Source: an uncultured Gammaproteobacteria bacterium (GTDB lineage: Bacteria > Patescibacteriota > Patescibacteriia > Patescibacteriales > GWC2-42-12). Taken from it: a DNA stretch of 64,000 nt. The stretch is taken from contig CAZHZE010000001.1 in the NCBI GenBank assembly GCA_964537265.1, forward strand, positions 27,103 through 91,102, given 5' to 3'. Each line of letters starts with the position of its first letter. Positions within the stretch are counted from its first letter, which is position 1. The position numbers and the translations under genes were made by a program. Below, piece after piece: positions 3,329 to 53,076 of the stretch. Under the pieces are notes generated by a model. It did not search any database, was not told the origin of the DNA, and saw only the letters and a program-made list of their open reading frames with translations.

Positions 3329-4798
3329 ATGGCTAAAACAAAGCTATTATTATTATTTTTCTGTTTTTCTTTAGTTTTTGTATTTACTATTAGTGCGGCT
3401 AAGGCCGAAGGTTTTGATCCTAATAATATTATTAGCGATTTAGAAATTTTGGATTATACTTCCATGGGCTTAAATGAAATCCAAACATTCTTACAAAATA
3501 AAGGCAGTTATTTAGCTACCTATTCCTGCCCTGACGCTTACGGCATGATCAGAAAAGCTTCGGAAATAATTTACAATGCGGCGGCTAATAATTTTGACTG
3601 CGACGGCGCTGTTTTAAGCGATAATCCGACTATTGAAGAAAGACAAGCTAAATGCAAAAAAATAACTATCAGCCCGAAATTTCTTTTGGTGCTTTTGCAA
3701 AAAGAGCAAAGTTTAATTGAAAGAAGCACAACTCCGACTCAAAGAAGCCTAGATTGGGCGACCGGTTATGGTTGTCCTGATTCTGGCGGTTGTAATTCAC
3801 GCTGGCAAGGTTTTGGCAAACAAGTTAATTCAGCCGCTTTGCAATTCAGAGATTATATTGATAATCCGCAATATTATACTTACAAAGCCGGCAACACTTA
3901 TACTTTTACCAATACTGACGCCGAGCCTATGACCGTTACGCCGGCTAATCAAGCCACAGCCGCGCTTTATAATTACACGCCGCATGTTTATAACGGCAAT
4001 TATAATTTTTATAAAATCTGGCAACGCTGGTTCACAAAAATTTATCCCGACGGCTCGCTTTTGCAAGCTAGCGGAGAAGCTGGAGTCTGGCTATTGCAAA
4101 ATGGTTTAATTCGTCCATTTTTATCTAAATCAGCTTTGGTCTCTCGCTTTGACATAAATAAAATTATCATCGTAAATAAATCCGATTTGGATAAATATGA
4201 AAAAGGCACGCCGATTAAATTCGCTCAATATTCTTTAGTAAAATCTCCGCGCGGCACGATTTTCTTAATCGTTGATGATAAAAAACGCGGCTTCACTTCT
4301 ATGGAAGCTTTCAGAAAAATGGGCTTTAACCCCGAAGAAGTCGTTAGCGCCGCCTGGGAAGATATAAATTATTATGCCGACGGTCCGAATATTACCGCTA
4401 CCTCTACTTATCCGACCGGCGCTTTGCTGCAAAATAATAAAACCGGTGGAATTTATTATGTAATTGATGGCATCAAATATCCGCTAATAGATAAAATTTT
4501 CTTAACTACTAAATTTAAAAGTAAAAAAATCATAGCTGTAACTCCGGCGGAATTGGATGGATATGAAACAGCCAAACCTTATCTATTCGGCGACGGCGAA
4601 TTGCTTAAAACAAAAGATTCTCCTTATACTTATGTAATTTCCGGCGGAAAAAAACTTTTAATAACCTCGGATAAAGTCTTTACTAGTTTAGGTTATAAAA
4701 TCGAAAATGTTATAATCGTGCCTTCAAGCATTTTGTATTTATATGAAGCCGGCACTCCTTTAACCGAAGAATTATTGGTTAATAATAGTACTAATTAA
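3329..4798 (+). CDS. Secreted protein of unknown function, possibly cell-wall associated
   Basis: 489-aa ORF with an N-terminal signal peptide (LLLLFFCFSLVFVFTISAAKA). No catalytic motif recognised with confidence. Confidence 0.7.
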   Translation: MAKTKLLLLFFCFSLVFVFTISAAKAEGFDPNNIISDLEILDYTSMGLNEIQTFLQNKGSYLATYSCPDAYGMIRKASEIIYNAAANNFDCDGAVLSDNPTIEERQAKCKKITISPKFLLVLLQKEQSLIERSTTPTQRSLDWATGYGCPDSGGCNSRWQGFGKQVNSAALQFRDYIDNPQYYTYKAGNTYTFTNTDAEPMTVTPANQATAALYNYTPHVYNGNYNFYKIWQRWFTKIYPDGSLLQASGEAGVWLLQNGLIRPFLSKSALVSRFDINKIIIVNKSDLDKYEKGTPIKFAQYSLVKSPRGTIFLIVDDKKRGFTSMEAFRKMGFNPEEVVSAAWEDINYYADGPNITATSTYPTGALLQNNKTGGIYYVIDGIKYPLIDKIFLTTKFKSKKIIAVTPAELDGYETAKPYLFGDGELLKTKDSPYTYVISGGKKLLITSDKVFTSLGYKIENVIIVPSSILYLYEAGTPLTEELLVNNSTN

Positions 4799-7372: not shown

Positions 7373-7444
7373 GCCGCCATCGTCTAACGGTTAGGACGCC
7401 AGGTTCTCATCCTGGTAATAGGAGTTCGATTCTCCTTGGCGGTA
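7373..7444 (+). tRNA. tRNA-Glu (anticodon CUC)
   Basis: Hand-folded cloverleaf: GCCGCCA TC GTCT AACGGTTA GGAC G CCAGG TTCTCAT CCTGG TAAT AGGAG TTCGATT CTCCT TGGCGGT A. It has a G1-U72 pair and no encoded CCA. Confidence 0.9.
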
Positions 7445-7451
7445 CTATAAT

Positions 7452-17405: not shown

Positions 17406-20400
17406 TTAAAATATATTTATATTAACCAAAATTTCATCAATATTGTCATTGTCTATATCGTTTACCGAAACATAGGCGCCTTGTCTGCTTTTTTTATCAG
17501 CAGCGAAAAATTGGCCTAAGAGCTTACCTTTATCGTCAAAAATTCTTACTTGCGGTCCGCCGCCCTGCCCGGCTCCGGCGATAATTTCGTCTTTGCCATC
17601 TCCGTTTATATCTCCTGAGGCAACGTTTACGCCGCCGCGAAAATTCTTGTCAAAAGCGAAAAATTGGCCTAAGAGCTTACCTTTATCGTCAAAAATTCTT
17701 ACTTGCGGTCCGCCGCCCTGCCCGGCTCCGGCGATAATCTGTTTAGTTAAATTATTTTTACTTAATTGAGCTACGGCAAAATTAATATTTATTTTTGAAG
17801 ATACGAAAGGGTTAAAGGAAAAAATAACTTTTCCGTTTTTATAAATAGATATTTTCCCTTCACCATCAACTATAATTTCTTTGGCCCCATCATTATTAAT
17901 GTCGGAAATTAAAATTTTAACTCCGCTGGCCATATTTGGTCGATAAGAAAAAAAACCGTTTCTAACCTGCTGGCCGAAAGAATTAAAAACGCGAATAAAG
18001 CCGCCGTTATAATAAGCGTTATTTTCTATTTCTTTCTGAATTTTTAAAGCGATAAATCCGTCGTTAGGCTTTAATTTAAACCAATTGATTTTTTCTCCGC
18101 TATTTACCATTGGATCTTGCGAGCCTTTTATTTTTTCAAATTCTTCTTTGCTAAAAACGTAAACTTGTTCAACTGAGGTGGAGTTAGTAATAACTATGCC
18201 GTTTTCAAAGTCACGACGCCATAAACCAGCTTGCACGGTTCCGTCTTTAGTATTAAGCAAATTATAAGCCTTAGACTCGGCGCGGCCAAGGTTAATATTA
18301 TACTCATCAAACCACCAAACCTGCGCATGATTCTGGTCGCCTTGATCATAAGAAAAATACCCGTCACCTAATAAAGCGCTAGTTAAACCAAATCTCATAT
18401 TACGCAATTTTTCCGCCCAGCTGCAATCGCCGTCGTTATCAATATTAGAATTAATTATATAAGTATATTTTTCATTGTTATTGTTGAGATAAACATTCAT
18501 TAATTTTGACCAACCATTAGCCCCTAACCATTTAACAGGAAAATTTTCCATCATTTCACCATCTAATTTATCTTTATAAGTCCCGGCAATATTCAAATTA
18601 GCAATTAATGGCAAGGGACTAATTTTTTGTTTAGTATTAACCAATAATTCATTAATGCCATTAAACCAATATTGATTTAAACCGGGCATATTAAGCTTGC
18701 CATTTAATCTTTTATCGGCCGTAACAATATCTCCATTATTTAACCAGTTTAACTCAGAAGAAACCATGTCATAAAAAATTCCATCCCAATTACCATCTGA
18801 TAAAATCTCATCTTTAACAAAATTGGGCAAATAATTTTTCCAACCGCTGCCAATATCCACTATTTTTATAGTAGGCCAGGTGCTATTAAAACTAATAATC
18901 CCATTAGAATTATCTCTAAGCCACCAATTGCCGCTATCAGCGGCTTGATAATTTTTTGCTCTGTATTCCGACCAATCGCCTATTCCTTGTGTGTTAACGC
19001 TCTGGCTAGGCACATAAGCAAAAATCTTTTCTTGCTGATTTTTCGATTTAATATTAAATAATAAATTAGGGGTTAATCTAGCCACTTCAGCGTCAAGAAC
19101 AACTAAATCATATTTAGATAATTCACTTAGGTGCTCTTCGGGAATAATTGGCTGTAAATAATAATTAGCTATTTTAGGAAAAACATCTTTAGAATCAAAA
19201 GCCTGCGTCGACGCAGGAATAAATAAAAAAGAAAGTAATAAAAAAACTGCAGTCGCGTATTTTTTAAAATTATTTTTTATCGAGCGCTTATCTATTAATT
19301 GCTGATAAAATTTTATAATTTCTGATAAATATTTTTCCGGCTGATATTTTGCGCTTACTAAAAGAGCCGCCTGGCTTAATTTTTTTTCATCGCCTTGGTC
19401 TAATTTATGGATGGCGGCGGCTAAACTTTTTTCATCTCCAGCCTTAAATAAGAAACCATTTTCACCATCAACTATCATTTCCTTTAAGCCACCGATAGCC
19501 GAGGCTATAATCGGTTTTCCGGCGGACAACGCCTCTAAAACTACATAGGGAAAATTTTCCGGCCAAATTGACGGAACTATAACTGCGCGAGAATTTATAA
19601 TATAATTATTTAAATCCTGGCCGTATTTTGCGCCGAGCATTTCTATTCTATCCGTTAATTTTAATTTTTCAATTAAATTTTTAATTTTTTTAAAATCTGG
19701 ACCAGCGCCGACAATTTTTAATTTAAACTTTTGTTCAGTTAAGGCCATGGCCTTAATTAAAGTATTAATACCCTTTTCTTCGGCCAATCTACCGTAATAA
19801 AGTAAATATGGCTCACTAGGTAATTTAGGCGTTGAGCCGGATAATGATGCATTATTAAAATTATTAAGCACTTTTATTTTATTTTCCGGAACGCCGAAAT
19901 TAACGCAAATATCTTTCATAAATCTGCTGGGCGCAATAAATAAATCTATTTTTTCATAAACTTTTTTAAAGCGGCAATAATAAGCTTCTAAACTAGCCAA
20001 TAAACTTTTTAAAAATGATTTTTTTAAACATTTATTAAGAGTACAATTATAATACTTTCCGCCGCGGCATTTATAGCAAACTTCTCCGCAAGTAAATAAT
20101 TTATAATTAGGACATATTAATTTATAATCATGCAAAGTCTGCACTATAGGAATATTATATTTTTTTAGAACATTAATAATCGACGAGCTTAATTGATGAG
20201 AAAAATTATGCAGATGCGCGATATCCGGCCGCTCTTCTTTAATTAATTTTTCCAATTGGTTCGCCGCTTCGCTATTATAAAATAATTTAAAAATATTTTT
20301 TAGGCTAAATTTTTCCAAACTAACTGGTTTAGAAAAATAACGGCTATAAGGCGTGGTTTCATTTTTTTTATCCTGCATGGAAAAAGGTATGACCTCATGA

Positions 20401-22929: not shown

Positions 22930-23604
22930 TTATTTATTGGCTGGCGTCCTTACGGTTATAAAACCATAAGAAGATGAGCAATACCAGTTACCTATAAACC
23001 CCTCGCAGTTATTCGTGCCAACACATTCTTTGTGCCAGCCGTTCCAGTCGGCCTTTAAGTCTTTCCAATAATCAAGGCCTAACTGCAAACAGATTTTACC
23101 TTGCAGTTTAAATTTTGCCTCCACTACATGGTGGGAGCCGTTTTTTACCTCGGCTCTCGATGTCCACCAATGCAATATCTTGTCCGGCGTTTCTTCGGCT
23201 TTTAAAACTAAACAGCCGTTCTCGAGACAAGAATTTTGGATTGGCTGATGCTTATCATCGGCGAACCAATTTGGTTGGCGGCTATATAATCCTCCTTTCT
23301 TTTTATCTAAAAAAGGAGAATCACTTTGGTCGTAGTTCTCTTCAGTAATAATTTTTTCATCGCCTTGCTCATTAATTTCAATGAGCCGAAGAAAATCAAC
23401 AAAGGCTATGCCGCCTTCTCCGCCCTGCTCAGTAGTAGTAGCAACTTGAGCCCAAGCAACAGCAGTAGAAAATCCCGCCGGCGCTTTTTGTCTTAGCACG
23501 TTCTGCTGTTTCCAGATTGCTCCATCTGGATACTTCTGGGTAGTGGCGCAAGACATAAGCAAAAACAATAAAAAGATCATCCCTATAATTTTTAAAATTT
23601 TCAT
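22930..23604 (-). CDS. Lipoprotein of unknown function (exported-protein block, gene 5)
   Basis: I chose the start at 23604 (MKILKIIGMIFLLFLLMSCATT) because AAAGGAGGAG lies 7 nt upstream. It has a lipobox LLMSC and a W/C-rich mature part. Confidence 0.65.
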   Translation of the reverse strand: MKILKIIGMIFLLFLLMSCATTQKYPDGAIWKQQNVLRQKAPAGFSTAVAWAQVATTTEQGGEGGIAFVDFLRLIEINEQGDEKIITEENYDQSDSPFLDKKKGGLYSRQPNWFADDKHQPIQNSCLENGCLVLKAEETPDKILHWWTSRAEVKNGSHHVVEAKFKLQGKICLQLGLDYWKDLKADWNGWHKECVGTNNCEGFIGNWYCSSSYGFITVRTPANK

Positions 23605-23700
23605 GATACACTCCTCCTTTATAAAAGTATTCTTATAAAAATTACGGAACATTATACATTAACATTTTTTTTAATTTTTGTCAACGCATAATACTTTTTT

Positions 23701-23737
23701 AAAAAAATACCCCGGTTTCTTTTATTAGAAACCGGGG
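23701..23737 (-). terminator. Intrinsic terminator after ORF 23762..24289
   Basis: The minus strand reads CCCCGGTTTC-TAATAAAA-GAAACCGGGG followed by TATTTTTTT. Confidence 0.7.
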
Positions 23738-23761
23738 GTTAATTATTTTATCTGTCGAGAT

Positions 23762-24289
23762 TTATTCCCAGGCCGGATAATCTCTTGGCACCGACTTTGT
23801 TTCGCCGGTACTGATTTTTGTAACGAACTGATACGCAATATTGCCTTTTTTGTCAGCTCGACAAAGTTCATCATCAGGGTTGATGTCTAACCAGAAAATT
23901 TTATTTTCTTTTGCTACTTTACCCCAACCCCTCAACATTATAATATCTGACTTTCCGGTACCTTTAACGGTTGCCGTGGCATATCTGCCGGACTTTTCCG
24001 TCTTCACTTTGTAATCGCCGATAGCAACTTTAACCCATTGACCATCAATGTACTCAGCGAAATCGAAATATAATGTCGGCACTCCATCTTTTTGTCTTTC
24101 GGAAAGAGGTATGGCTATTGTTATTCCTTTTTCTGCATCAGGAGCAACTTTCACATATTCTTTTCCGAAACCTAAGCCGCCAAAAGGTGATATAACTTTG
24201 GTATCAGCCGACGGCAATTGAAAATCCGCAAATGCCGTACCACAAACAAAAAACGACACAACAACTAACAACAACCACAACTTTTTCAT
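23762..24289 (-). CDS. Secreted protein of unknown function (block gene 4)
   Basis: Signal peptide MKKLWLLLVVVSFFVCGTAFA. SD AGGAGGAAGTT-ATG. Confidence 0.65.
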   Translation of the reverse strand: MKKLWLLLVVVSFFVCGTAFADFQLPSADTKVISPFGGLGFGKEYVKVAPDAEKGITIAIPLSERQKDGVPTLYFDFAEYIDGQWVKVAIGDYKVKTEKSGRYATATVKGTGKSDIIMLRGWGKVAKENKIFWLDINPDDELCRADKKGNIAYQFVTKISTGETKSVPRDYPAWE

Positions 24290-24336
24290 AACTTCCTCCT
24301 TATATTTTGTTTTATTTTTTTATTTTTCCCAGACTT

Positions 24337-26004
24337 TTAGTAAGACATGGGTTGATTGTGTAACGGTTCATTCAAATTATTAACATTTTCGACTTTCTCA
24401 AATATCGGCTGTTCCACTTTTTTATTGGTCAGCCAATCGTAAAAATCCATCACATACTCGCTAACATCAAGAAGAGCATAAATCTGATATTGATCGCCTT
24501 CGCCACTAAATATCTCTTTATAGATTGCTCCCAAGTTAAGAGACTTAACTTTTTTGTAAGCGAATTTAATATTCGGTCCAATTTCACCGAAATTAAACAA
24601 CCCATCGCTTGCCAAATTTCTTTGAGATAAACCAAATTCTTTTCCAAGTCCAGCTTTTATCGCCGGGGTTATCCGTAAATCACCGATATTAAAATCATAA
24701 ATGGCTTGATCGATGGTTACTTCGTACATCTTATTATCGCTTGTGTCAGGAGCTAAAGGTCCGTTGTCCCAATAATGCTTTTGATCGGCTTTGAAAACAT
24801 GCCGATATTCAGCATTTAGCTCTGTCTCAGGCAAAAACTTTTTGCCTTCGACTCTTCTCGCATAATAATTCAGATGGGCCGAAATAATACCTATTGCATC
24901 CTCCTGCTCGCTGCGGTATTTACCGGTGCCACCTTGTTCTATTGTTGTGCTACCGAAACCACCCTCATTATAAAGGCGGCCATACATAACGTCAATGTCG
25001 CCGTCATAATTTTTGAGGCCGTTTATAAACTTCAAGGAAGGACCAGCAGCCCATTCATTCCATTTATAATTATAGTCCTTGTCATGGCCTTCGCCACCAG
25101 ACAGGAACGCAGCAATACCACCGTAAAAATCCGTATCACCGACTTTACCGATGAAGCATCTTTCTCTGACTTTGAGCCAGTAATAATACCCATCGGCATC
25201 CTGATCCGAATGCGAATTTTCATAATACCCGGTTCCCATGATGAGATCGGTTTTGCAATGACCATTATATTCGCCGCAAGGCTCTTCCTTAACCTCTTCC
25301 ACCGGAATTTCTTCGGGCGGAATCAATAGAGCCATAGGCTCTTCGGGGGGCGCTGGTTCAGGCTCGGGCACAACTTCGGGTTCGGGCGGTGCAGGCGCAG
25401 GCTCGGCTACCACTTCGGGTTCCGGAGGCTTCGGCGCCTCTTCTTTCCACCAAGACCAATTACTGCAAATAAGCGGTTTGATAAGGTAATAAATATAACC
25501 ATCAAACTCAACCTTAGCATACATCTCTGCATCTAGCTGGTCTTCCGGCAACTGCACCTCGACATTATTACGAACCTTATAATTATCGTACATCTGTTGA
25601 GCAAACACTTTCCCAACTTCCATGCGATAAGGTTCACTTTGTTTTTTCTCAACGGCCGCTGTGAACTTCACTTTAACTTCTTCGGGGAGAAGATCAAAAA
25701 GATTCATCTCCATTGCTTTAATAAAATTTCTGCCGTCGAAAGGGTTTGTGCCGCCTTTTTCCCAAATAAAGGGAAAAGCCTTTTCTGGAATTTCCAGAGT
25801 CTGGCCGGGGTAAATCCTATTAGGGTTCTTAATCTCTGCTTCGTTCGCCTTGTAAACAGTTTGCCAATTAAGGCCATACTGCTTAGCGATCGAGGAGAGA
25901 CACTCGCCTTTCTTAACTGGGTGTTGCGTAGCCTGGGCAAGCCCGGTCACGCAAAACATTGTCAGAAAGGAAACGACAACTGCAAAAAATAATGTCTTCT
26001 TCAT
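24337..26004 (-). CDS. Secreted LysM protein with a Pro-rich linker and a beta-rich C-terminal domain (block gene 3)
   Basis: A signal peptide is followed by a LysM motif (GECLSSIAKQYGLNWQTVYKANEAEIKNPNRIYPGQTLEIP). Residues ~188-242 form a PEPEVV/PAPP linker. The last ~300 aa show alternating-pattern segments. Confidence 0.75.
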   Translation of the reverse strand: MKKTLFFAVVVSFLTMFCVTGLAQATQHPVKKGECLSSIAKQYGLNWQTVYKANEAEIKNPNRIYPGQTLEIPEKAFPFIWEKGGTNPFDGRNFIKAMEMNLFDLLPEEVKVKFTAAVEKKQSEPYRMEVGKVFAQQMYDNYKVRNNVEVQLPEDQLDAEMYAKVEFDGYIYYLIKPLICSNWSWWKEEAPKPPEPEVVAEPAPAPPEPEVVPEPEPAPPEEPMALLIPPEEIPVEEVKEEPCGEYNGHCKTDLIMGTGYYENSHSDQDADGYYYWLKVRERCFIGKVGDTDFYGGIAAFLSGGEGHDKDYNYKWNEWAAGPSLKFINGLKNYDGDIDVMYGRLYNEGGFGSTTIEQGGTGKYRSEQEDAIGIISAHLNYYARRVEGKKFLPETELNAEYRHVFKADQKHYWDNGPLAPDTSDNKMYEVTIDQAIYDFNIGDLRITPAIKAGLGKEFGLSQRNLASDGLFNFGEIGPNIKFAYKKVKSLNLGAIYKEIFSGEGDQYQIYALLDVSEYVMDFYDWLTNKKVEQPIFEKVENVNNLNEPLHNQPMSY

Positions 26005-26042
26005 GATCGTTCTCCTTTTTTGATTTTTGTTTTTTGTGTTTG

Positions 26043-26263
26043 GGCGACTTGCCTCTTCAAATAACTCGTATCTTAGATTTTATTTTTTATCTTTTTGGGC
26101 GCTATTGCGTCTTATCCAGCCAATGGCTTTCAAAGCATTCTCCAATTGGAGAACTTTTTTAAGGTTCCCCAATGGGGCGCCTTCCTAAGATAAATCATAA
26201 TTTCTTCGATTCTTATTACTTTTATTAAGCTCGACGCAACAAACAATTAATCCCGCATTGCGG
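26043..26263. repeat. Cluster of short GC-clamped palindromes with a CAAT(T)G core, in the leader of ORF 24337..26004
   Basis: Palindromes: CCGCATTGCGG (26253-63), CCCCAATGGGG (26167-77), TCTCCAATTGGAGA (26139-52) and AGCCAATGGCT (26118-28). Degenerate copies: GGCGACTTGCC (26043-53) and CGCTATTGCG (26100-09). Confidence 0.55.
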
Positions 26264-26266
26264 AAT

Positions 26267-27322
26267 TTATTTCTTGATTATCTTACTGTTATATACCAAC
26301 ACGCAGTTATTGTACTCTTCATACGTATTGGCTTTTTCACAGGGCGTGCCCTGGATAGAAAGTTTCACATTTTCCGGTAATAAACGTTCGGAATTGCGAA
26401 AATTTTTCGTCGCGATTGACGACGAAGCTACTGGTTTATAATTCTTCTCGTAGTACTCCAGCAATTCATAATAATCACCTGCTGTCAGTACTCTGTCCAT
26501 GTAGCCGGGTTGATTCAAATCTTCCTGAAATAATTGCTTTGGGATTTGAAAAACCTTAGATGCTAAAATATAAGCTCCGTAAGCTTGCGGAGTTAAAATG
26601 GGATATGTTGCTACCACATACCATCCTTCGCCAAAAAATTGCTTTACAAGCTTATCACGTCCGCTTTTTTCCAACTTCTTAAGAACTTCTTCAGGCAAGG
26701 CGGAATAAAAAGGAATATTATACTCCTTATAAATAGCCCGCACTTCCTTTTGCAGCTTCTGACCGACAAAAGAAGCATTAAGGTCAACCGCTCTTTCAAA
26801 AGCCTCGGTGCCGTTTTCATACAACATCGGGTTAACCTCGCTAACTCTCGGCAAAAAATTCTCGGCTTTTTCAGGATTAAATTTCCCAATGTCTCCGAGC
26901 TTTATATATTTCTCCGAGCGCGGATCGAAAATGCGTTTTCCAGCATGATCGGCAATTCCGATAAAAGTATTATCGAAATCAAACTTTACAGATACTGGAA
27001 TTAAAACGGTTAATTTATTACCCAACGTTTTCACGCCGAAAAATTCATAGAATTTCCAATCTTCACCGTCTTTGTAATAAACCGGCGTCATCCAGGCAAT
27101 CGAAACCTGTTCAATGCCTTCATCATTTAACAGAGCCGTATCGGCAATGTTTAATTTTTTCGGCAAAGGAACTTCTATTTTATAAACCGCTTTAATCGAT
27201 TCCGCTTTATTAAATTGCGGAACGGCGTACATCTCGCCCAGGACTATCTTTGAGTTACTCCCACACCCGCAAAACATAACCGCGACCATCAGAAAGATGG
27301 CCAAAAAGATATTTCTTTTCAT
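26267..27322 (-). CDS. Lipoprotein of unknown function (block gene 2)
   Basis: Lipobox VMFCGCGS. I chose the start at 27322 because AGGAGG lies 6 nt upstream; the ORF-track start at 27328 abuts the SD. Confidence 0.7.
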   Translation of the reverse strand: MKRNIFLAIFLMVAVMFCGCGSNSKIVLGEMYAVPQFNKAESIKAVYKIEVPLPKKLNIADTALLNDEGIEQVSIAWMTPVYYKDGEDWKFYEFFGVKTLGNKLTVLIPVSVKFDFDNTFIGIADHAGKRIFDPRSEKYIKLGDIGKFNPEKAENFLPRVSEVNPMLYENGTEAFERAVDLNASFVGQKLQKEVRAIYKEYNIPFYSALPEEVLKKLEKSGRDKLVKQFFGEGWYVVATYPILTPQAYGAYILASKVFQIPKQLFQEDLNQPGYMDRVLTAGDYYELLEYYEKNYKPVASSSIATKNFRNSERLLPENVKLSIQGTPCEKANTYEEYNNCVLVYNSKIIKK

Positions 27323-27333
27323 GTCCATCCTCC

Positions 27334-28083
27334 TTAGACTCGTTTGATTTGTCTGATTTTACCTTCGGCAATCAACTTATCAACCTGATCGCCGTATTTG
27401 TCTTTCCGACGCCAACACTGTCGTACATTTGCCTTGGCTTCGCCTTCTTTCTCCTTCCAAATCCGATCACCACCATTTTTGTGGCAAAAAGGAATGAAAT
27501 AACGATCAAGTTCAGCATTGTACTCAATTTCGGCCTCAAAAATACCATTTTCTTCAACCGGGACGAAAAACTTTTTATCAGTAACTGTTTGAGAAACTTC
27601 ATTTTTTTGCTCCGCTTGAACCGACGCTTGCTTTTTATCTCGAAGGAAAAAAACTATTGCAATGATAATTATTGCAAGGATAGCGAAGACAATTAAATTA
27701 TCTCTTCTTTCTTCTTGTTGTTTTTTAATTCTGTCTTTCCTATCTTCATCCATCTCTTTTACAATCTTTTGCGCATCTTTCAATGTCGCAATAGCTTCTG
27801 CAACTTGTTTTTTTGCTTCTTCGGGAGTTAACTTAGCTATCGGCCGATCAGATAGATAATAAACAATTTTCTGACCAACCACCACCTGCGTACCCAAATT
27901 TGGGTTCCACTGGTGTATCTCTTTAATGTTTATCCCCTGGACTTTCCAGGTGTACATCAATTCGCCGAGAGTATCGCCGACTTTTACCGTATAAATAACT
28001 TTCTCACCGGCAAATGCCAACGATCCGACTAACAACATAATCATAACCATTACAACCAAAATCATCTTTTTCATTTCCAACAT
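27334..28083 (-). CDS. Bitopic LysM protein: signal peptide, LysM, coiled coil, TM segment and cytoplasmic tail (block gene 1)
   Basis: LysM motif VKVGDTLGELMYTWKVQGINIKEIHQWNPNLGTQVVVGQKIVY, a charged helix, a TM segment (LIVFAILAIIIIAIVFFL) and a C-terminal domain of about 100 aa. An alternative start lies at 28074. Confidence 0.7.
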   Translation of the reverse strand: MLEMKKMILVVMVMIMLLVGSLAFAGEKVIYTVKVGDTLGELMYTWKVQGINIKEIHQWNPNLGTQVVVGQKIVYYLSDRPIAKLTPEEAKKQVAEAIATLKDAQKIVKEMDEDRKDRIKKQQEERRDNLIVFAILAIIIIAIVFFLRDKKQASVQAEQKNEVSQTVTDKKFFVPVEENGIFEAEIEYNAELDRYFIPFCHKNGGDRIWKEKEGEAKANVRQCWRRKDKYGDQVDKLIAEGKIRQIKRV

Positions 28084-28089
28084 CCTTTC

Positions 28090-28212
28090 CGTCCAATTGG
28101 ACGATTTTTGGGCAATTGCCCATTTTTATTTTTACTAACTAAATTGTCAAAGTTCTAATCTATAATCTGCCGATCTTAATTCACTTGAATCACGATCGTC
28201 GGCAATTGCCGA
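28090..28212. repeat. Three CAATTG-core palindromes around the block promoter
   Basis: CGTCCAATTGGACG (28090-103), GGGCAATTGCCC (28110-121) and TCGGCAATTGCCGA (28199-212). The last two share the 10-bp core GGCAATTGCC. Confidence 0.55.
28123..28150 (-). promoter_or_regulatory. Candidate sigma70-type promoter of the exported-protein block
   Basis: The minus strand carries TTGACA (28145..28150), a 16-nt spacer and TAAAAA (28123..28128). The predicted start falls at the GGGCAATTGCCC palindrome. Confidence 0.4.
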
Positions 28213-28249
28213 GTGGCGCAAATTCAGACCTCCATTCTCGGATAATTTT

Positions 28250-29119
28250 TTAATTATCCGAATATGGCTTTCCGAATATATTATTCATACTTCCCTGCTT
28301 AGAAATTTCTTCATTGTTATCTAAGTCATCATCACTATCTAAATCATTATTTATTTTATTTTCACTAAAATTAAATTCTGTCTCATCTAACGCTTCCGTT
28401 GGTTCGGCTACGCTCGCGAGTACAGCCGGCGCGAATTCTCGTTCTCGATAAGAATTATTTTTTTCTTCATGTTTATCGTGAGAATTTTTTGGCGCTAAAC
28501 TGACATTATATTTTTTTTCAGGATATAAATAAATATAAACGCCGGAAAAAATTAAACCTAGCACTAGGGCCAAATTAAAATTTAAAATTAAATTTGGTTT
28601 AACCGGATAGTTGCTGGTAATCGGATCATCAATTACTTTTATAGAAACATTATCTGCGCCACCATGATAAAGTCCATGTTTAGTTTGTAAAGTATAAACT
28701 ATGGCACGAGCAATCAAATCTGTTTGAGTGCGATCTTTATGATAAACATTAATTGTGATAATACCCGAGTCATTATTAGCTTTAGTGCTAACGGTTTTAT
28801 TCCAAGTCTTCATTTGTTTTTTTACTGTCTGACCGAAATAACTTTTATCAACCGCATAACCAGAGTTCAAAACATTTTCAAAAAATGAATTAGAATAAAC
28901 GACCTTGGCCAAGATGTTGCTTAAATACTCAGTTGATTTTGAAGCTGTGTACGGATCGGAGCTAATTGAGTTTTGAATTATTAGTATTTGAGAACTTGCC
29001 CCATATTTAAACGGTTGAACAACGGTTAAAATAGTGGCTAAAATTAAAAAAATAAAAACAAAAGACGCAATGGTGCTTTTTTTCTTATTTATTAGGGATA
29101 AATAATCTTTTAATTCCAT
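28250..29119 (-). CDS. Wzz-like polysaccharide chain-length determinant family protein
   Basis: An N-terminal TM segment follows MELKDYLSLINKKKSTI, a second TM segment lies near residue 200, and the C-terminal tail is acidic. This architecture is typical of the Wzz N-terminal domain family. Confidence 0.55.
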   Translation of the reverse strand: MELKDYLSLINKKKSTIASFVFIFLILATILTVVQPFKYGASSQILIIQNSISSDPYTASKSTEYLSNILAKVVYSNSFFENVLNSGYAVDKSYFGQTVKKQMKTWNKTVSTKANNDSGIITINVYHKDRTQTDLIARAIVYTLQTKHGLYHGGADNVSIKVIDDPITSNYPVKPNLILNFNLALVLGLIFSGVYIYLYPEKKYNVSLAPKNSHDKHEEKNNSYREREFAPAVLASVAEPTEALDETEFNFSENKINNDLDSDDDLDNNEEISKQGSMNNIFGKPYSDN

Positions 29120-30730: not shown

Positions 30731-30806
30731 TGGAGCCACCCGTCGGATTCGGACCGACGACCTACGGTTTACAAAACCGTTGCTCTACCAACTGAGCTAG
30801 GGTGGC
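30731..30806 (-). tRNA. tRNA-Thr (anticodon UGU), CCA encoded
   Basis: GCCACCC TA GCTC AGTTGGTA GAGC A ACGGT TTTGTAA ACCGT AGGTC GTCGG TCCGAAT CCGAC GGGTGGC T CCA. The T-loop reads TCCGAAT, so position 55 is C. Confidence 0.9.
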
Positions 30807-30944: not shown

Positions 30945-31020
30945 TGGTGCGCCGTACTGGATTCGAACCAGTGACCTTCTCCTTAAAAGGGAGCTGCTCT
31001 GCCAACTGAGCTAACAGCGC
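30945..31020 (-). tRNA. tRNA-Lys (anticodon UUU), CCA encoded
   Basis: GCGCTGT TA GCTC AGTTGGCA GAGC A GCTCC CTTTTAA GGAGA AGGTC ACTGG TTCGAAT CCAGT ACGGCGC A CCA. Confidence 0.9.
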
Positions 31021-36302: not shown

Positions 36303-39056
36303 TTATAATTCCCTAGCCTTTTCAACCTGCAACTTAGCTTCTTTATCTATAATAATTGTGTCTCTTCTTTTTAAACCATTAGCTAAAACTTGATTAGCGA
36401 TTTCATTTTCAATTTTTTCCTGGATTAAACGCCTAAGCGGCCGGGCGCCGAATTTAGGATCAAAACCTAAACCAGCTAATTTTTTTATCCCCTCTTCTTC
36501 ATATTTTAAACCAATGCCTTTGGTTTCCAAAAGCCGCTTAACTTTATTAAGCATTAATTTCGTGATACTTTCAACTTCTTCTAACCCCAAAGGTTTAAAT
36601 ACCACAACGCCATCAAAACGATTAATTAATTCTGGTTTTAAATATTTATTAAGTTGATCATTTATTAAAGACTGCTTTATAACATCAAGCGAAGCACCGG
36701 CGCGTATCTGATCTTGGATATAAACCGCTCCGATATTAGAAGTCGCAATAATAATGCAGTTAGTAAAATTTATTGTTCTGCCCATGCCATCAGTTAAACG
36801 TCCATCATCCATAACTTGCAAAAATAAATTTAATATATCAGGGTGGGCTTTCTCCAACTCATCTAAAAGAACCAGAGAAAACGGAGCTTTGCGCACGGCT
36901 TCGGTTAAATACCCTAAAGCTCCATTGGGCGAACCGATCATTTTTTCCACAGATTCAGGACGCTGATATTCACTCATATCTATTCTAACCATATAATTTT
37001 CATCGCCAAAATAAACCTCGGCAACGGTTTTCGCTAATTCTGTTTTACCGACTCCAGTCGGACCCAAAAATAAAAAGCTGGCGATCGGGCGTTTCTGTTC
37101 TCTTAATTCTGTGCGCGCGCGCCTTAAACTCGCCGCCACCATATCAACCGCCTCAGATTGGCCAATCATACGATTATGAATCTTTTCTTCAAGATTAAGC
37201 AAAGTCTCGCTTTCCTTCTCCGTAATTTTCGTTAAAGGAATTTTTGTTTTCTGGCTGACTATCTCAGCTACATCTTCAACATCAACCATGCTATTTATAC
37301 CTTTATCTTTAGAAACTTTAACCGCAATAGCTTCTAAAATATCTACTGCTTTAGCCGGCAAATATTTATCATGAATATATTTAGCCGATAATTCCACGGC
37401 TTTGGCAATGCTGGCGTAAGTAAAATAAACTTGAAATTTCGCTTCGTAAAATCCTATTTTACTTTCTATCATCTGAATGGATAAATTATTATTCGGTTCT
37501 TCTACCTCTACCTTAGACATAATTGAGCCAAGCGGTTGGTTTTCAATATACTTTACATAACTTTCCTGAGTAACGCTGGCTAAACAAATAATATTATGGC
37601 GGTCAATGGCATTCATTAAAACATCGGATAATTCCAAGCTTTCTTCTCCGCCGGCCGTGATGCCCATTAAATTTTCTATATTATTTATGTATAAAATAAT
37701 ATTGCCGGCACGGGCTACTTCATCAATTATAACCAAAAGCCTTTCTTCCGCTTGAGCGGCGGTAATGCCGCTTAGCAAACGAGAAATGTCCAATTCTAAA
37801 AGACGCTTATCCTTTAAAGTTTTTGGCACATCTTCTTCCACCATCTGTCTAGCAATTTGGCCAATAATTATATTTTTACCCACGCCGGGATTGCCGCAAA
37901 GTATTATGCCATTTTTACCGCTTTCTAAAATTTCAAATATTTGTTTAATTTCTTGCTCGCGCCCGACACATAATTCCAACCTTCCCCATTTAGCCGCCAA
38001 AGTTAAATCATATGCAAAATGATTTAGAATAGGCGTGGCTACGGCCGTGTAAGCTCTATCCATGGCATTGCCAGGTTTAAAGCGCGAAGCCTTTTTATAA
38101 AGATGGTAATTTTCTACTAGCCTTTCGCTAATAATAAACCATTGGATAACATTATTTATTTTATCATGATCAATTTCTAAATCGTAAAGCAATTCGCTTA
38201 AATTTTTATCTCGAGATAAAATAGGTAAAATAAAATGAATCGGTTCAACTTTTTTTTGTCCGGAATTTAAAGCGCTAATATAACTTTCAAAAAAAATTTC
38301 TTTAATTTCAGGCGATATTTCCGTCGATTGATTTATTGTTTCTACGGCCAATAATTGATTTTTTAATTTAGAAATTAGTTTAGCCGAATCAACGTTTAAT
38401 CGAGAAAAAACCGCTGACACTCCCCTGTCTTTCAATAAATTAAAAAATAAATGAATCGGTCTAACTTGACCATGTTTTGAAAAACTAGCTAAATTAAAAG
38501 CCTGTTCGATTGTTTTAATGGCGATCTGGCTAAAACCGCTAGAAACTTCAATTTTGTATTTATTTCTTGTCTTATTAAATTCCACCCAGTTATTAGGAGA
38601 TTTAAATTCATTTTTTTGGCCATATTTTATTTTTTTTATTTTTTGCTTGGACGCTTGTTCTTCGCTTAAACGATAAATTATAAACATATCTACAAGCAAA
38701 CTAAGCCAAAAAAATAAAATAAAGGGGCTTTTAACCCGCCAAAAAGAAAAAGCCGATAGGCCCTGAGTTTCTTGACCAGCTATTACCACCCAATATGTTA
38801 AAGCCATCAACCCGCCCAAACCGATAACTAAAGCCGACAAATTTAAAAATATATTTAAACCTTTTTTTAAATGCCTTAATTTTATAGCCGGCAGACTAAT
38901 GGGTAAACCCCAATAAAAAAATCTGCCTTCATAAATTGCAATAAGGCCGACGCCTGAACAATTTTTGCAAGATAATCCGTTATTAATTTTACCTGTACCG
39001 CCGCAAACCGAACAAGTTATATATTGAATGTTAGATTTTTTTATATCTTCGGACAT
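36303..39056 (-). CDS. Membrane-anchored Hsp100/Clp-family ATPase with an N-terminal zinc ribbon and a degenerate first AAA+ module
   Basis: N-terminus CSVCGGTGKINNGLSCKNCSGVG (two CxxCxGxG), then about three TM segments and Clp_N-like repeats. D1 has GNPGVGKN and ILYINNIEN in place of GxxGxGKT and hhhhDE. D2 is intact ([19 protein letters not shown]). There is no coiled-coil middle domain. Confidence 0.8.
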   Translation of the reverse strand: MSEDIKKSNIQYITCSVCGGTGKINNGLSCKNCSGVGLIAIYEGRFFYWGLPISLPAIKLRHLKKGLNIFLNLSALVIGLGGLMALTYWVVIAGQETQGLSAFSFWRVKSPFILFFWLSLLVDMFIIYRLSEEQASKQKIKKIKYGQKNEFKSPNNWVEFNKTRNKYKIEVSSGFSQIAIKTIEQAFNLASFSKHGQVRPIHLFFNLLKDRGVSAVFSRLNVDSAKLISKLKNQLLAVETINQSTEISPEIKEIFFESYISALNSGQKKVEPIHFILPILSRDKNLSELLYDLEIDHDKINNVIQWFIISERLVENYHLYKKASRFKPGNAMDRAYTAVATPILNHFAYDLTLAAKWGRLELCVGREQEIKQIFEILESGKNGIILCGNPGVGKNIIIGQIARQMVEEDVPKTLKDKRLLELDISRLLSGITAAQAEERLLVIIDEVARAGNIILYINNIENLMGITAGGEESLELSDVLMNAIDRHNIICLASVTQESYVKYIENQPLGSIMSKVEVEEPNNNLSIQMIESKIGFYEAKFQVYFTYASIAKAVELSAKYIHDKYLPAKAVDILEAIAVKVSKDKGINSMVDVEDVAEIVSQKTKIPLTKITEKESETLLNLEEKIHNRMIGQSEAVDMVAASLRRARTELREQKRPIASFLFLGPTGVGKTELAKTVAEVYFGDENYMVRIDMSEYQRPESVEKMIGSPNGALGYLTEAVRKAPFSLVLLDELEKAHPDILNLFLQVMDDGRLTDGMGRTINFTNCIIIATSNIGAVYIQDQIRAGASLDVIKQSLINDQLNKYLKPELINRFDGVVVFKPLGLEEVESITKLMLNKVKRLLETKGIGLKYEEEGIKKLAGLGFDPKFGARPLRRLIQEKIENEIANQVLANGLKRRDTIIIDKEAKLQVEKAREL

Positions 39057-42403: not shown

Positions 42404-42519
42404 AAAAGAACTTTAAACCAATTAACAAAAAATAGTTAGTTGTTTTTTACTTTATTATTAGGCAATTTGCGGATCATATTTCCCTCTTTTTGGGAGCCGC
42501 CAAATAACATTATATCAAT

Positions 42520-43606: not shown

Positions 43607-43633
43607 AAAAGAAGGATGCTTTAAAGCATCCTT
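43605..43633 (-). terminator. Terminator after the small minus-strand ORF; the hairpin also closes dcd
   Basis: The minus strand reads AAGGATGCTT-TA-AAGCATCCTT followed by CTTTTTT. Confidence 0.6.
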
Positions 43634-53042: not shown

Positions 53043-53076
53043 CCCTCTCCTTACTAAGGAGAGGGCAGGGTGAGGT
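53043..53076 (+). repeat. Hairpin-plus-AGGGTGAGGT element, copy A (abuts the DUF559 stop)
   Basis: CCCTCTCCTTA-C-TAAGGAGAGGG followed by CAGGGTGAGGT. Confidence 0.6.

Follow-up and report, generated by a model that had tools for sequence, protein, structure and literature searches.

The operon and its relatives

The window, as we term the whole 64-kb stretch of DNA analysed here, contains a Patescibacteria envelope operon in which two intergenic spacers carry a cluster of short, GC-clamped palindromes. These spacers correspond to a pair of previously undescribed structured leader RNAs, whose distinguishing feature is a genome-specific hairpin loop. All genes of the region are encoded on the minus strand, namely those for a Wzz-like chain-length protein (28250-29119); p249 (27334-28083), which comprises a signal peptide, a LysM domain, a transmembrane helix, and a C-terminal domain; the lipoprotein p353 (26267-27328); the secreted LysM protein p555 (24337-26004); and p175 (23762-24289). 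Leader A is the wzz-p249 spacer (28084-28249, minus strand) and has p249 as its first downstream gene, while leader B is the p353-p555 spacer (26005-26266, minus strand) and serves p555, which results in the order wzz, leader A, p249-p353, leader B, p555-p175. Upstream of wzz lie a terminator and a promoter-like site (29186-29158). A strong bidirectional terminator hairpin, CCCCGGUUUCU...AGAAACCGGGG (23710-23737), follows p175; it is conserved in lineage L004 (12174-12200) and probably marks the end of the operon.

Relatives of the locus were gathered via homologues of p555 and Wzz. With p353 as the query, an exact look-up and a scan for close relatives retrieved only the same strain (L001 and L002) and a distant locus (L003). 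The strain is represented in the read sets SRR11845623 and SRR11845625. The gene order MiaB-like, Wzz, p249-like, p353-like, p555-like, p175-like, Wzy (minus strand), and radical-SAM was found on contigs of eight lineages: that of the window (also L001 and L002), L028, L004 (with L005, L009, and L018), L030 (with L006, L019, L029, and L031), L032, L033 (with L034 and L035), L036 (with L037 and L038; annotated as Falkowbacteria), and L007 (with L010). A homologue of p555 is annotated to a Patescibacteria group bacterium, and more distant versions of the operon occur in L008 and L003. Alignment A1 was discarded for locus scanning as too divergent.

Clustering of the palindromes

A preliminary description of this DNA had listed seven palindromes, GC-clamped and centred on CAAT(T)G, and all of them were found in the two spacers. 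In plus-strand coordinates, leader B contains CCGCATTGCGG (26253-26263), CCCCAATGGGG (26167-26177), (T)TCTCCAATTGGAGA(A) (26138-26153), and AGCCAATGGCT (26118-26128), which correspond to hairpins B0, B1, B2, and B3, respectively. Leader A contains CGTCCAATTGGACG (28090-28103), (T)GGGCAATTGCCC(A) (28109-28122), and TCGGCAATTGCCGA (28199-28212), which correspond to hairpins H2, H1, and HA. Two degenerate copies and the GCCCAAA tails were likewise located (26091-26111, 26036-26055, and 28104-28112), and two copies of GGCAATTGCC are indeed separated by 90 bp. The sequence GGCAATTTGCGG (42461-42472), which had been listed as a loose relative, lacks complementary arms and does not belong to the family.

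Family members were counted as centres CAATTG, CAATG, or CATTG with arms of at least 5, using dinucleotide shuffles as the null. The window holds eight members, compared with 3.7 +/- 1.8 after shuffling, so that the count alone is unremarkable. Arms of 7 or more are found in four members, where shuffling yields 0.35. Seven members fall inside 2.3 kb, for which the shuffled maximum averages 1.3 and never exceeds 3, and seven of the eight lie in the 428 nucleotides (nt) of spacer, where shuffling the spacers themselves yields 0.04 (largest value 2 in 2000). The eighth, TGGCATTGCCA (38063-38073), represents the chance level, consistent with the reported confinement of the family to the two spacers. 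CAATTG itself occurs 13 times in the 64 kb; the spacers account for four of these sites, each with arms of 7 or more. The shuffle tests thus exclude a chance cluster.

Structure of leader A

Leader A comprises, in this order, stem-loop H0; a three-way junction formed by helices P1, HA, and HB; the box CUUUGACAAUU; and hairpins H1 and H2, all on the minus strand. H0 (UUCGGAUAAUU-AAAA-AAUUAUCCGAG, 28237-28262) has an 11-bp AU-rich stem, spans the stop codon of the wzz-like gene, and is not followed by a U-tract. It is kept in seven lineages, in which one pair shifts from A-U to G-U to G-C. The junction, which was predicted with RNAalifold, spans 74 nt (28158-28231) and is closed by P1, whose pairs 58:140 and 59:139 change from G-C/C-G to A-U/U-A in three lineages. 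In the arm HA (UCGGC-AAUU-GCCGA, 28199-28212), one pair goes through G-C, G-U, and A-U, and another through U-A and C-G. The second arm, HB (CGAUC..GAUUC-AAGU-GAAUU..GAUCG, 28171-28198), has three pairs altered on both sides and many G-U pairs on the sense strand. A covariance model of the junction, R1, found exactly one copy per lineage and nothing further in the 292 kb searched; it recovered L033, which carries a 31-nt insertion and had been left out of the model, with an E value of 1.8e-10.

Downstream of the linear box follow H1 (UGGGC-AAUU-GCCCA, 28109-28122; -8.3 kcal/mol) and H2 (CGUCC-AAUU-GGACG, 28090-28103), the latter ending at the p249 ribosome-binding site GGAAAGGA (28083-28090). 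The orthologues of H1 are GGGC-AGUU-GCCC, GGGC-GAUU-GCCC, and CUGC-UUUGG-GCAG, and those of H2 are GUCC-AGUU-GGAC, UCCC-GAUU-GGGA, and CCAC-UUUGG-GUGG. The box (28142-28152) contains the motif TTTGA, invariant in the seven-lineage alignment A6, and the fuller TTTGACAAT can be made out in each of the eight sequences. It had earlier been taken as a -35 element, which is doubtful because the distance from its TTGACA to H1 varies between 1 and 22 nt across lineages. This unconserved spacing, together with the RNA-type covariation in the hairpins upstream, led us to reject TTGACA-17-AAAAAT as the p249 promoter. The same two features suggest that both spacers are read through, from wzz and p353, respectively, and read-through from wzz appears more likely than initiation at a p249 promoter. 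That the leaders are transcribed from the minus strand is presumed from the layout of the operon, the promoter-like site of wzz, and the missing U-tract after H0.

In alignment A6, H0, HA, and HB are 96% paired, compared with 25-55% when partners are slid; six pairs are altered on both sides, and the covariation score was reached by none of 500 shuffles. The fold of the window sequence is also more stable than its dinucleotide shuffles (z -4.6). Across the alignment, the RNAalifold structure of leader A comprises 300 Watson-Crick pairs, 41 G-U pairs, and 13 non-pairs on the sense strand, against 300, 1, and 53, respectively, on the antisense strand. As this structure had been predicted on the sense strand, the reverse-complemented alignment was folded separately, too. 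The consensus energy was -46.1 kcal/mol for the sense strand versus -30.5 kcal/mol for the antisense strand, and each of the seven sequences favoured the sense strand, by 7-17 kcal/mol. Base pairs are hence kept by compensatory and G-U changes specifically on the sense strand, as befits leader RNA. T-runs follow H2, H1, and B2 on the plus strand, which might point to intrinsic terminators for antisense transcription, but the antisense strand pairs far less well, L032 and L007 lack the A-tracts, and there is no plus-strand gene to terminate. With chance excluded by the shuffles, antisense terminators or a chance cluster are scarcely credible as explanations.

The segment AUGGAGGUCUGA (28224-28235, minus strand) is conserved in all lineages as AUG-GAG/GCG-GUC-UGA/UAA and is either a three-codon mini open reading frame or merely the strand that helix P1 has on its 5' side, where the alternation of UGA and UAA would equally agree with a change from a G-U to an A-U pair. 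When the leader A sequences were compared by reading, the frames of small open reading frames were not conserved between lineages.

Structure of leader B

Leader B starts with B0 (AAUUCCGC-AAU-GCGGGAUU followed by AAUUGUUUGU, 26249-26267, minus strand; -8.7 kcal/mol), which follows immediately on the stop codon of p353 and has the appearance of a weak terminator. Its orthologue in L004, UCUCGC-CAU-GCGGGA, contains one G-U pair, and B0 is probably outside the loop-specific series. The remainder forms a multibranch domain of ~210 nt (26036-26245, minus strand), which includes B1-B4 and is closed by long-range helices. Among these, GUUUGUUGC (26235-26245) pairs with GCCCAAAC (26036-26055), the closing pairing being GUUUG(UUGC) with (GCC)CAAAC, and UUUAUCUU pairs with AAGAUAAA; there are others, too. 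The GCCCAAA tail, formerly described as shared by three units, was rejected as part of the repeat unit: in leader B it is the 3' strand of these long-range helices, which do not vary and have conservation as their sole support. UUUGGGC in L007 is the sense-strand hairpin loop of that lineage and a different motif.

The branch hairpins, all on the minus strand, are B1 (CCCC-AUU-GGGG, 26167-26177), B2 (UUCUCC-AAUU-GGAGAA, 26138-26153; -8.4 kcal/mol), B3 (AGCC-AUU-GGCU, 26118-26128; -4.0 kcal/mol), and B4 (GACGC-AAUA-GCGCCCAAAAAG, 26091-26111), which is decayed in this genome and reads CGCUG-GAUU-CAGCG followed by CCGAAAAAAG elsewhere. The orthologues of B1 each have a different stem (CCUCC-AGUU-GGAGG, GGUUGC-GAUU-GCAACC, and UUUCUGC-UUGGG-GCAGAAG). 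For B2, they are UCUCC-AGUU-GGAGA, UCUCC-GAUU-GGAGA, AUAGUC-AAUU-GACUAU, and AACUGC-UUUGG-GCAGUU, and for B3, AUGGC-AGUUG-GCCAU, GCC-GAUU-GGC, and AUGC-UUUGG-GCAU.

Counting the closing helices and two branch hairpins together, 91.6% of the cells of the whole predicted structure are paired, versus 39-48% with partners slid; nine pairs are altered on both sides, and none of 500 shuffles matched this. The fold of the window sequence has a z of -5.7 relative to dinucleotide shuffles, and all six single sequences favour the sense strand. The hairpins of both leaders are branches of larger conserved folds, and we consider it very likely that they are sense-strand RNA hairpins within such folds.

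Five lineages keep the segment GAAAUUAUGAUUUAUCUUAGG (26184-26204, minus strand) with hardly any change. It may serve p555 as a -10 promoter box (TATGAT) or contribute a strand to the closing helix of leader B, roles that are mutually exclusive per transcript.

Loop sequences across lineages

Hairpins formed by short, GC-rich inverted repeats occur at the same positions in the leaders of the seven related lineages, and the closing pair is almost always C-G, in the window as in its relatives. In the window, the stems have 4-7 GC-rich pairs and the loops have 3-4 nt, namely AAUU in HA, H1, H2, and B2 and AUU in B1 and B3. The loops of L004 are GAUU in HA, AGUU in H1, H2, B1, and B2, and AGUUG in B3, and B4 is absent. 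L028 equally has GAUU in HA and AGUU in H1 and H2, its contig ending before B1. L033 combines GAUU in HA with AGUU in H1, H2, B1, B2, and B4, and its B3 is aberrant. In L030, HA, H1, H2, B1, and B4 display GAUU, B2 displays AAUU, and B3 is absent, while GAUU is found in HA, H1, H2, and B1-B4 of L032, that is, in at least seven hairpins. L007 has GAUU in HA, UUUGG in H1, H2, B2, and B3, and UUGGG in B1, and lacks B4. The loops of L036 are mostly AUUU, and HA is not recognisable. Curated comparison of H1, H2, and B1-B4 revealed different stems at equivalent positions across lineages; within a genome, the stems differ while the loops are nearly uniform. The core that had been described as invariant is therefore so in this genome, but is replaced in relatives, whose orthologous loops are AGUU, GAUU, AUUU, or UUUGG. 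No further convincing copies of the loop hairpins were found in the 64 kb beyond the two spacers.

The hairpin centres of the seven related lineages (C-AGUU-G, C-GAUU-G, C-AUUU-G, and C-UUUGG-G) are not palindromic and are always in the sense orientation. Approximately 20 C-G-closed AGUU or GAUU hairpins are on the sense strand of the leaders, and none is on the antisense strand. The palindromes of the window are perfect because its loop, AAUU, happens to be self-complementary, which serves as a warning that a run of perfect DNA palindromes can stem merely from a self-complementary RNA tetraloop. The preliminary description had offered two readings, small RNA/DNA hairpins with an AAUU-type loop and a degenerate dimeric operator. 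The former is upheld by stem covariation, strand-specific loops, G-U pairs confined to the sense strand, and the larger folds.

Duplex-DNA operators for a dimeric or looping transcription factor are, in turn, very improbable. They would account for the four sites that are perfect 12-16 bp palindromes in this genome and for the two GGCAATTGCC sites, which flank the promoter-like TTGACA-17-AAAAAT 90 bp apart, features that do resemble dimeric-repressor operators. However, the arms (GGGC, GUCC, CUCC, CCCC, AGCC, and CGGC) share only the inner C/G and thus no half-site, and the centres in the seven lineages are CAGTTG, CGATTG, CATTTG, or CTTTGGG in a single orientation, sister lineages included. 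The relatives lose symmetry but keep pairing, in part via G-U intermediates, which would be meaningless in duplex DNA. The promoter geometry is not conserved either, and the supposed looping pair is not a pair elsewhere, as its copies differ in every other lineage (GAUU in HA; AGUU or UUUGG in H1).

The type of loop does not follow the Wzz tree. L004 (AGUU) and L030 (GAUU), whose Wzz proteins are 93% identical, have the same H1 and H2 stems, and both loops are switched together (AG versus GA). The sister lineages L033 (AGUU) and L032 (GAUU) show the same contrast. Copying among hairpins cannot explain this concerted switch, because the orthologous stems are retained. Downstream of wzz, the locus is mosaic: the 93% identity between L004 and L030 in Wzz compares with 36% in p249 and 57% in p555. 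Moreover, L028 and L030 score the same on the junction model (98 bits) and read identically there, despite only 72% identity in Wzz. Together, the patterns of L004/L030, L032/L033, and L028/L030 suggest recombination within the operon, from wzz to p555.

Mosaicism would also be expected if the hairpins were single-stranded DNA or cruciform sites similar to attC, at which cassettes are exchanged downstream of wzz, and folded single-stranded DNA sites tolerate G-T pairs and are strand-specific. We nevertheless regard such sites as highly unlikely, given that no integrase or recombinase is encoded near the locus in the window, that attC sites are far longer than these hairpins, which come in arrays of three to five, and that both the order of the genes and the placement of the hairpins are conserved. 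The larger folds, too, fit RNA better.

In the more distant operon of L003, an exact 14-nt repeat, TGCGCGTAGGTGCA (hairpin UGC-GCGUAGGU-GCA), is present in two leaders (2254-2267 and 4239-4252), along with a CGCAG-GAUU-CUGCG hairpin and a 16-nt inverted repeat able to form alternative structures. The logic of one loop per genome may thus extend to more distant operons such as this one.

A putative reader of the loops

As the loops are near-uniform within a genome and switch in concert between relatives while the stems remain unchanged, we propose, as the simplest reading, that the hairpins are repeated recognition sites of a putative, co-evolving trans-acting factor. We assign this proposal as a whole, which includes the RNA nature of the hairpins, a probability of about one half. 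According to it, short sense-strand stem-loops in the two leader RNAs would display the same loop in a given genome, and one factor would read these loops and either co-evolve or be co-inherited with them, so that its specificity changes or is exchanged with the mosaic locus. The reader would most likely be an RNA-binding protein rather than an RNA, since stable pairing between RNAs would need a loop of more than 4 nt and the AUUU type is not complementary to itself. By binding both at H1 and H2, which end 0-15 nt before the p249 ribosome-binding site, and at the set of hairpins that precedes p555, the factor would act after transcription and control the two gene pairs jointly, through translation, mRNA stability, or both.

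Passive elements for mRNA stability or processing, of the repetitive extragenic palindromic (REP) or puf type or acting as 5'-terminal stabiliser hairpins like those of highly expressed surface-protein genes, would require no reader and represent a possible though less probable account. They would only shield the polycistronic mRNA against ribonucleases or mark sites of processing. The location of the hairpins, between the cistrons of an operon that encodes secreted envelope proteins, is one where such structures have an established role in mRNA stability, as they have at 5' ends. Individually, those of the window are moderately stable (-4 to -8.7 kcal/mol), B0 resembles a leaky terminator, and B1 would be near a 5' end if the conserved TATGAT box were a promoter. 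Passive stability leaves unexplained, however, why loops are identical on differing stems in one genome, and the loops differ between genomes, so that there is no single thermodynamic optimum. Nor does it account for the joint AG-to-GA change in H1 and H2 between L004 and L030 with identical stems. RRUU loops are not known to belong to the extra-stable tetraloops.

Alternatively, the leaders might be self-contained structured RNAs, for example sensors akin to riboswitches or compact tertiary folds, in which identical loops make intramolecular tertiary contacts. Covariation supports both the three-way junction and the closed multibranch domain. Yet few unpaired nucleotides are conserved outside the loops, the junction strands vary, and no co-varying receptor sequence was seen. 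Rfam yielded no match in either leader at the gathering threshold, and a cmscan search against Rfam 15 at E values up to 10 returned only unrelated chance matches (E 2.7-8.2). Loop-loop kissing, or self-complementarity as a conserved property, was considered and rejected: the RRUU loops comply if G-U pairs are allowed, but the AUUU of L036 and the 4-nt size of the loops do not. A self-contained RNA is accordingly deemed unlikely.

As for the identity of the proposed reader, the cytoplasmic domain of p249 is a speculative candidate. Members of the p249 family were found in L030 (1781-2602), L033 (7082-7882), and L007 (478-1326). Outside the cell they display a LysM domain or, depending on the lineage, an OmpA-like one. 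The domain of ~80 residues that follows the transmembrane helix (residues ~165-249 of p249) is conserved, and the positive-inside rule predicts it to lie in the cytoplasm. This C-terminal domain is very rare, with six representatives among 1.84 billion proteins; it has no match in Pfam, and a profile search of the Protein Data Bank (PDB) came back empty. An AlphaFold model from the single sequence was unusable (predicted local distance difference test score, pLDDT, of 48), whereas one from an alignment of six sequences reached a pLDDT of 89 and displayed four strands, two helices, and one strand (beta4-alpha2-beta). The PURA, Whirly, MRP, and Sub1 folds gave weak, non-significant matches and were dismissed as relatives, and so was a Brinker-type helix-turn-helix, suggested by a phmmer match to a protein with eight repeats (E 8e-7), given its profile-profile probability of 0.6%. 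One column of the domain fits the loops perfectly (N, T, S, and A for AAUU, AGUU, GAUU, and AUUU, respectively), but not significantly. The domain reads ARRS in the GAUU lineages and likewise in the lineages that encode P0132 and P0133. In its most specific form, the proposal would make p249 a membrane-anchored sensor with a swapped peptidoglycan-binding domain, whose cytoplasmic domain binds the genome-specific loops of both leaders, with loop and reader switching together when the locus recombines. We consider this version quite unlikely; if it held, the translation or membrane tethering of envelope-protein mRNAs would be tied to the state of the cell wall.

Several observations weigh against the proposal as a whole. 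HA carries GAUU in all six other lineages that keep it, whatever their other loops, so the series is not fully uniform and HA may be purely structural. The loops of B1 and B3 have only three nucleotides in this genome. For leader B, whose alignment is poor, the consensus energies of the two strands tie (-21.4 for sense versus -21.5 for antisense). The lineages total eight and are mutually related, and several helices never vary and are hence uninformative. We infer the start sites and the co-transcription of the operon from structure and conservation. Finally, no RNA-binding protein was found as a reader of the loops. The p249 domain model had no significant match in the PDB (best E 0.57), and co-segregation of its cytoplasmic residues with loop type was not significant and no better than for other groupings.

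Members of the Patescibacteria, or candidate phyla radiation (CPR), cannot be grown alone, and their gene regulation is almost undescribed, which makes this locus a compact test case. An operon for surface proteins associated with peptidoglycan here contains two undescribed leader RNAs whose folds are backed by covariation, and the repeated loops of these RNAs behave as a specificity code would, differing even among close relatives. Should a reader protein exist, the system would supply naturally orthogonal pairs of RNA and protein as well as an entry point to envelope control in minimal cells.

Comparison with known systems

The arrangement appears to work most like arrays of protein-binding hairpins, yet it lacks the defining features of both such systems considered. 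In CsrA/RsmA regulation, several hairpins with GGA loops are found in mRNA leaders and sponge RNAs. The leaders described here likewise have several short stem-loops whose stems vary around a single conserved loop, and one of these stem-loops abuts a ribosome-binding site, where binding could control translation. They differ in that the loops are AAUU/AUU here and AGUU, GAUU, AUUU, or UUUGG elsewhere, without GGA and varying by genome, and in that the hairpins are set in larger conserved folds; no CsrA was found, although no search aimed at one was made. The boxB hairpins of lambdoid phage nut sites are read by arginine-rich peptides of N proteins; they have a GNRA-like pentaloop, occur once per nut site, and have a boxA nearby. 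A GC-rich stem of ~5 bp and a small, lineage-specific loop are common to boxB and the present hairpins, and boxB co-evolves with its reader. In contrast, there are three to five copies per leader here, the loops are of the RRUU type with 3-4 nt, and the setting is non-phage. By reading, no boxA-like CGCUCUUA was visible in the leader sequence.

Intercistronic palindromes of the REP or palindromic unit (PU) type occur as hundreds of near-identical copies across a genome. Like these and 5' stabilisers, the present elements are GC-rich palindromes between the genes of an operon and possibly act on mRNA stability, but they amount to seven copies in one operon in the 64 kb examined, with variable stems, conserved loops, and positional orthology. 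Intrinsic terminators differ in having a U-rich tail, which on the sense strand is found only at B0, where it is weak; the sequences after H1, H2, and B1-B3 are A-rich or mixed.

In the literature on LysM operons of CPR bacteria and on RRUU tetraloops, nothing relevant was found. TM7, that is, the Saccharibacteria, is a lineage of the Patescibacteria. Orphan structured lysM leader motifs, one of them from TM7, were reported by Weinberg et al. 2017 (PMC5737381). These are the nearest concept in the literature, as orphan structured RNAs in 5' leaders of genes for LysM-domain proteins, although nothing here matches them: the present leaders have no Rfam match and consist of a hairpin array, a three-way junction, and a closed domain.

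Other features of the window

The block of envelope genes (23000-28100) has a GC content of 40-49%, compared with 30-33% in the flanks. As relatives share the synteny, composition or codon usage (a proline-rich linker, high expression) is a more likely cause than the recent arrival of an island. The Rfam matches in the window are three tRNA genes only, namely tRNA-Thr(UGU) (30731-30806, minus strand), tRNA-Lys(UUU) (30945-31020, minus strand), and tRNA-Glu(CUC) (7373-7445, plus strand). Other long perfect palindromes, AAGGATGCTTTAAAGCATCCTT (43612-43633), CCCTCTCCTTACTAAGGAGAGGG (53043-53065), TTAAGGCCATGGCCTTAA (19739-19756), and CCTGCGTCGACGCAGG (19202-19217), are unrelated to the CAATTG family, and some of them are probably terminators.

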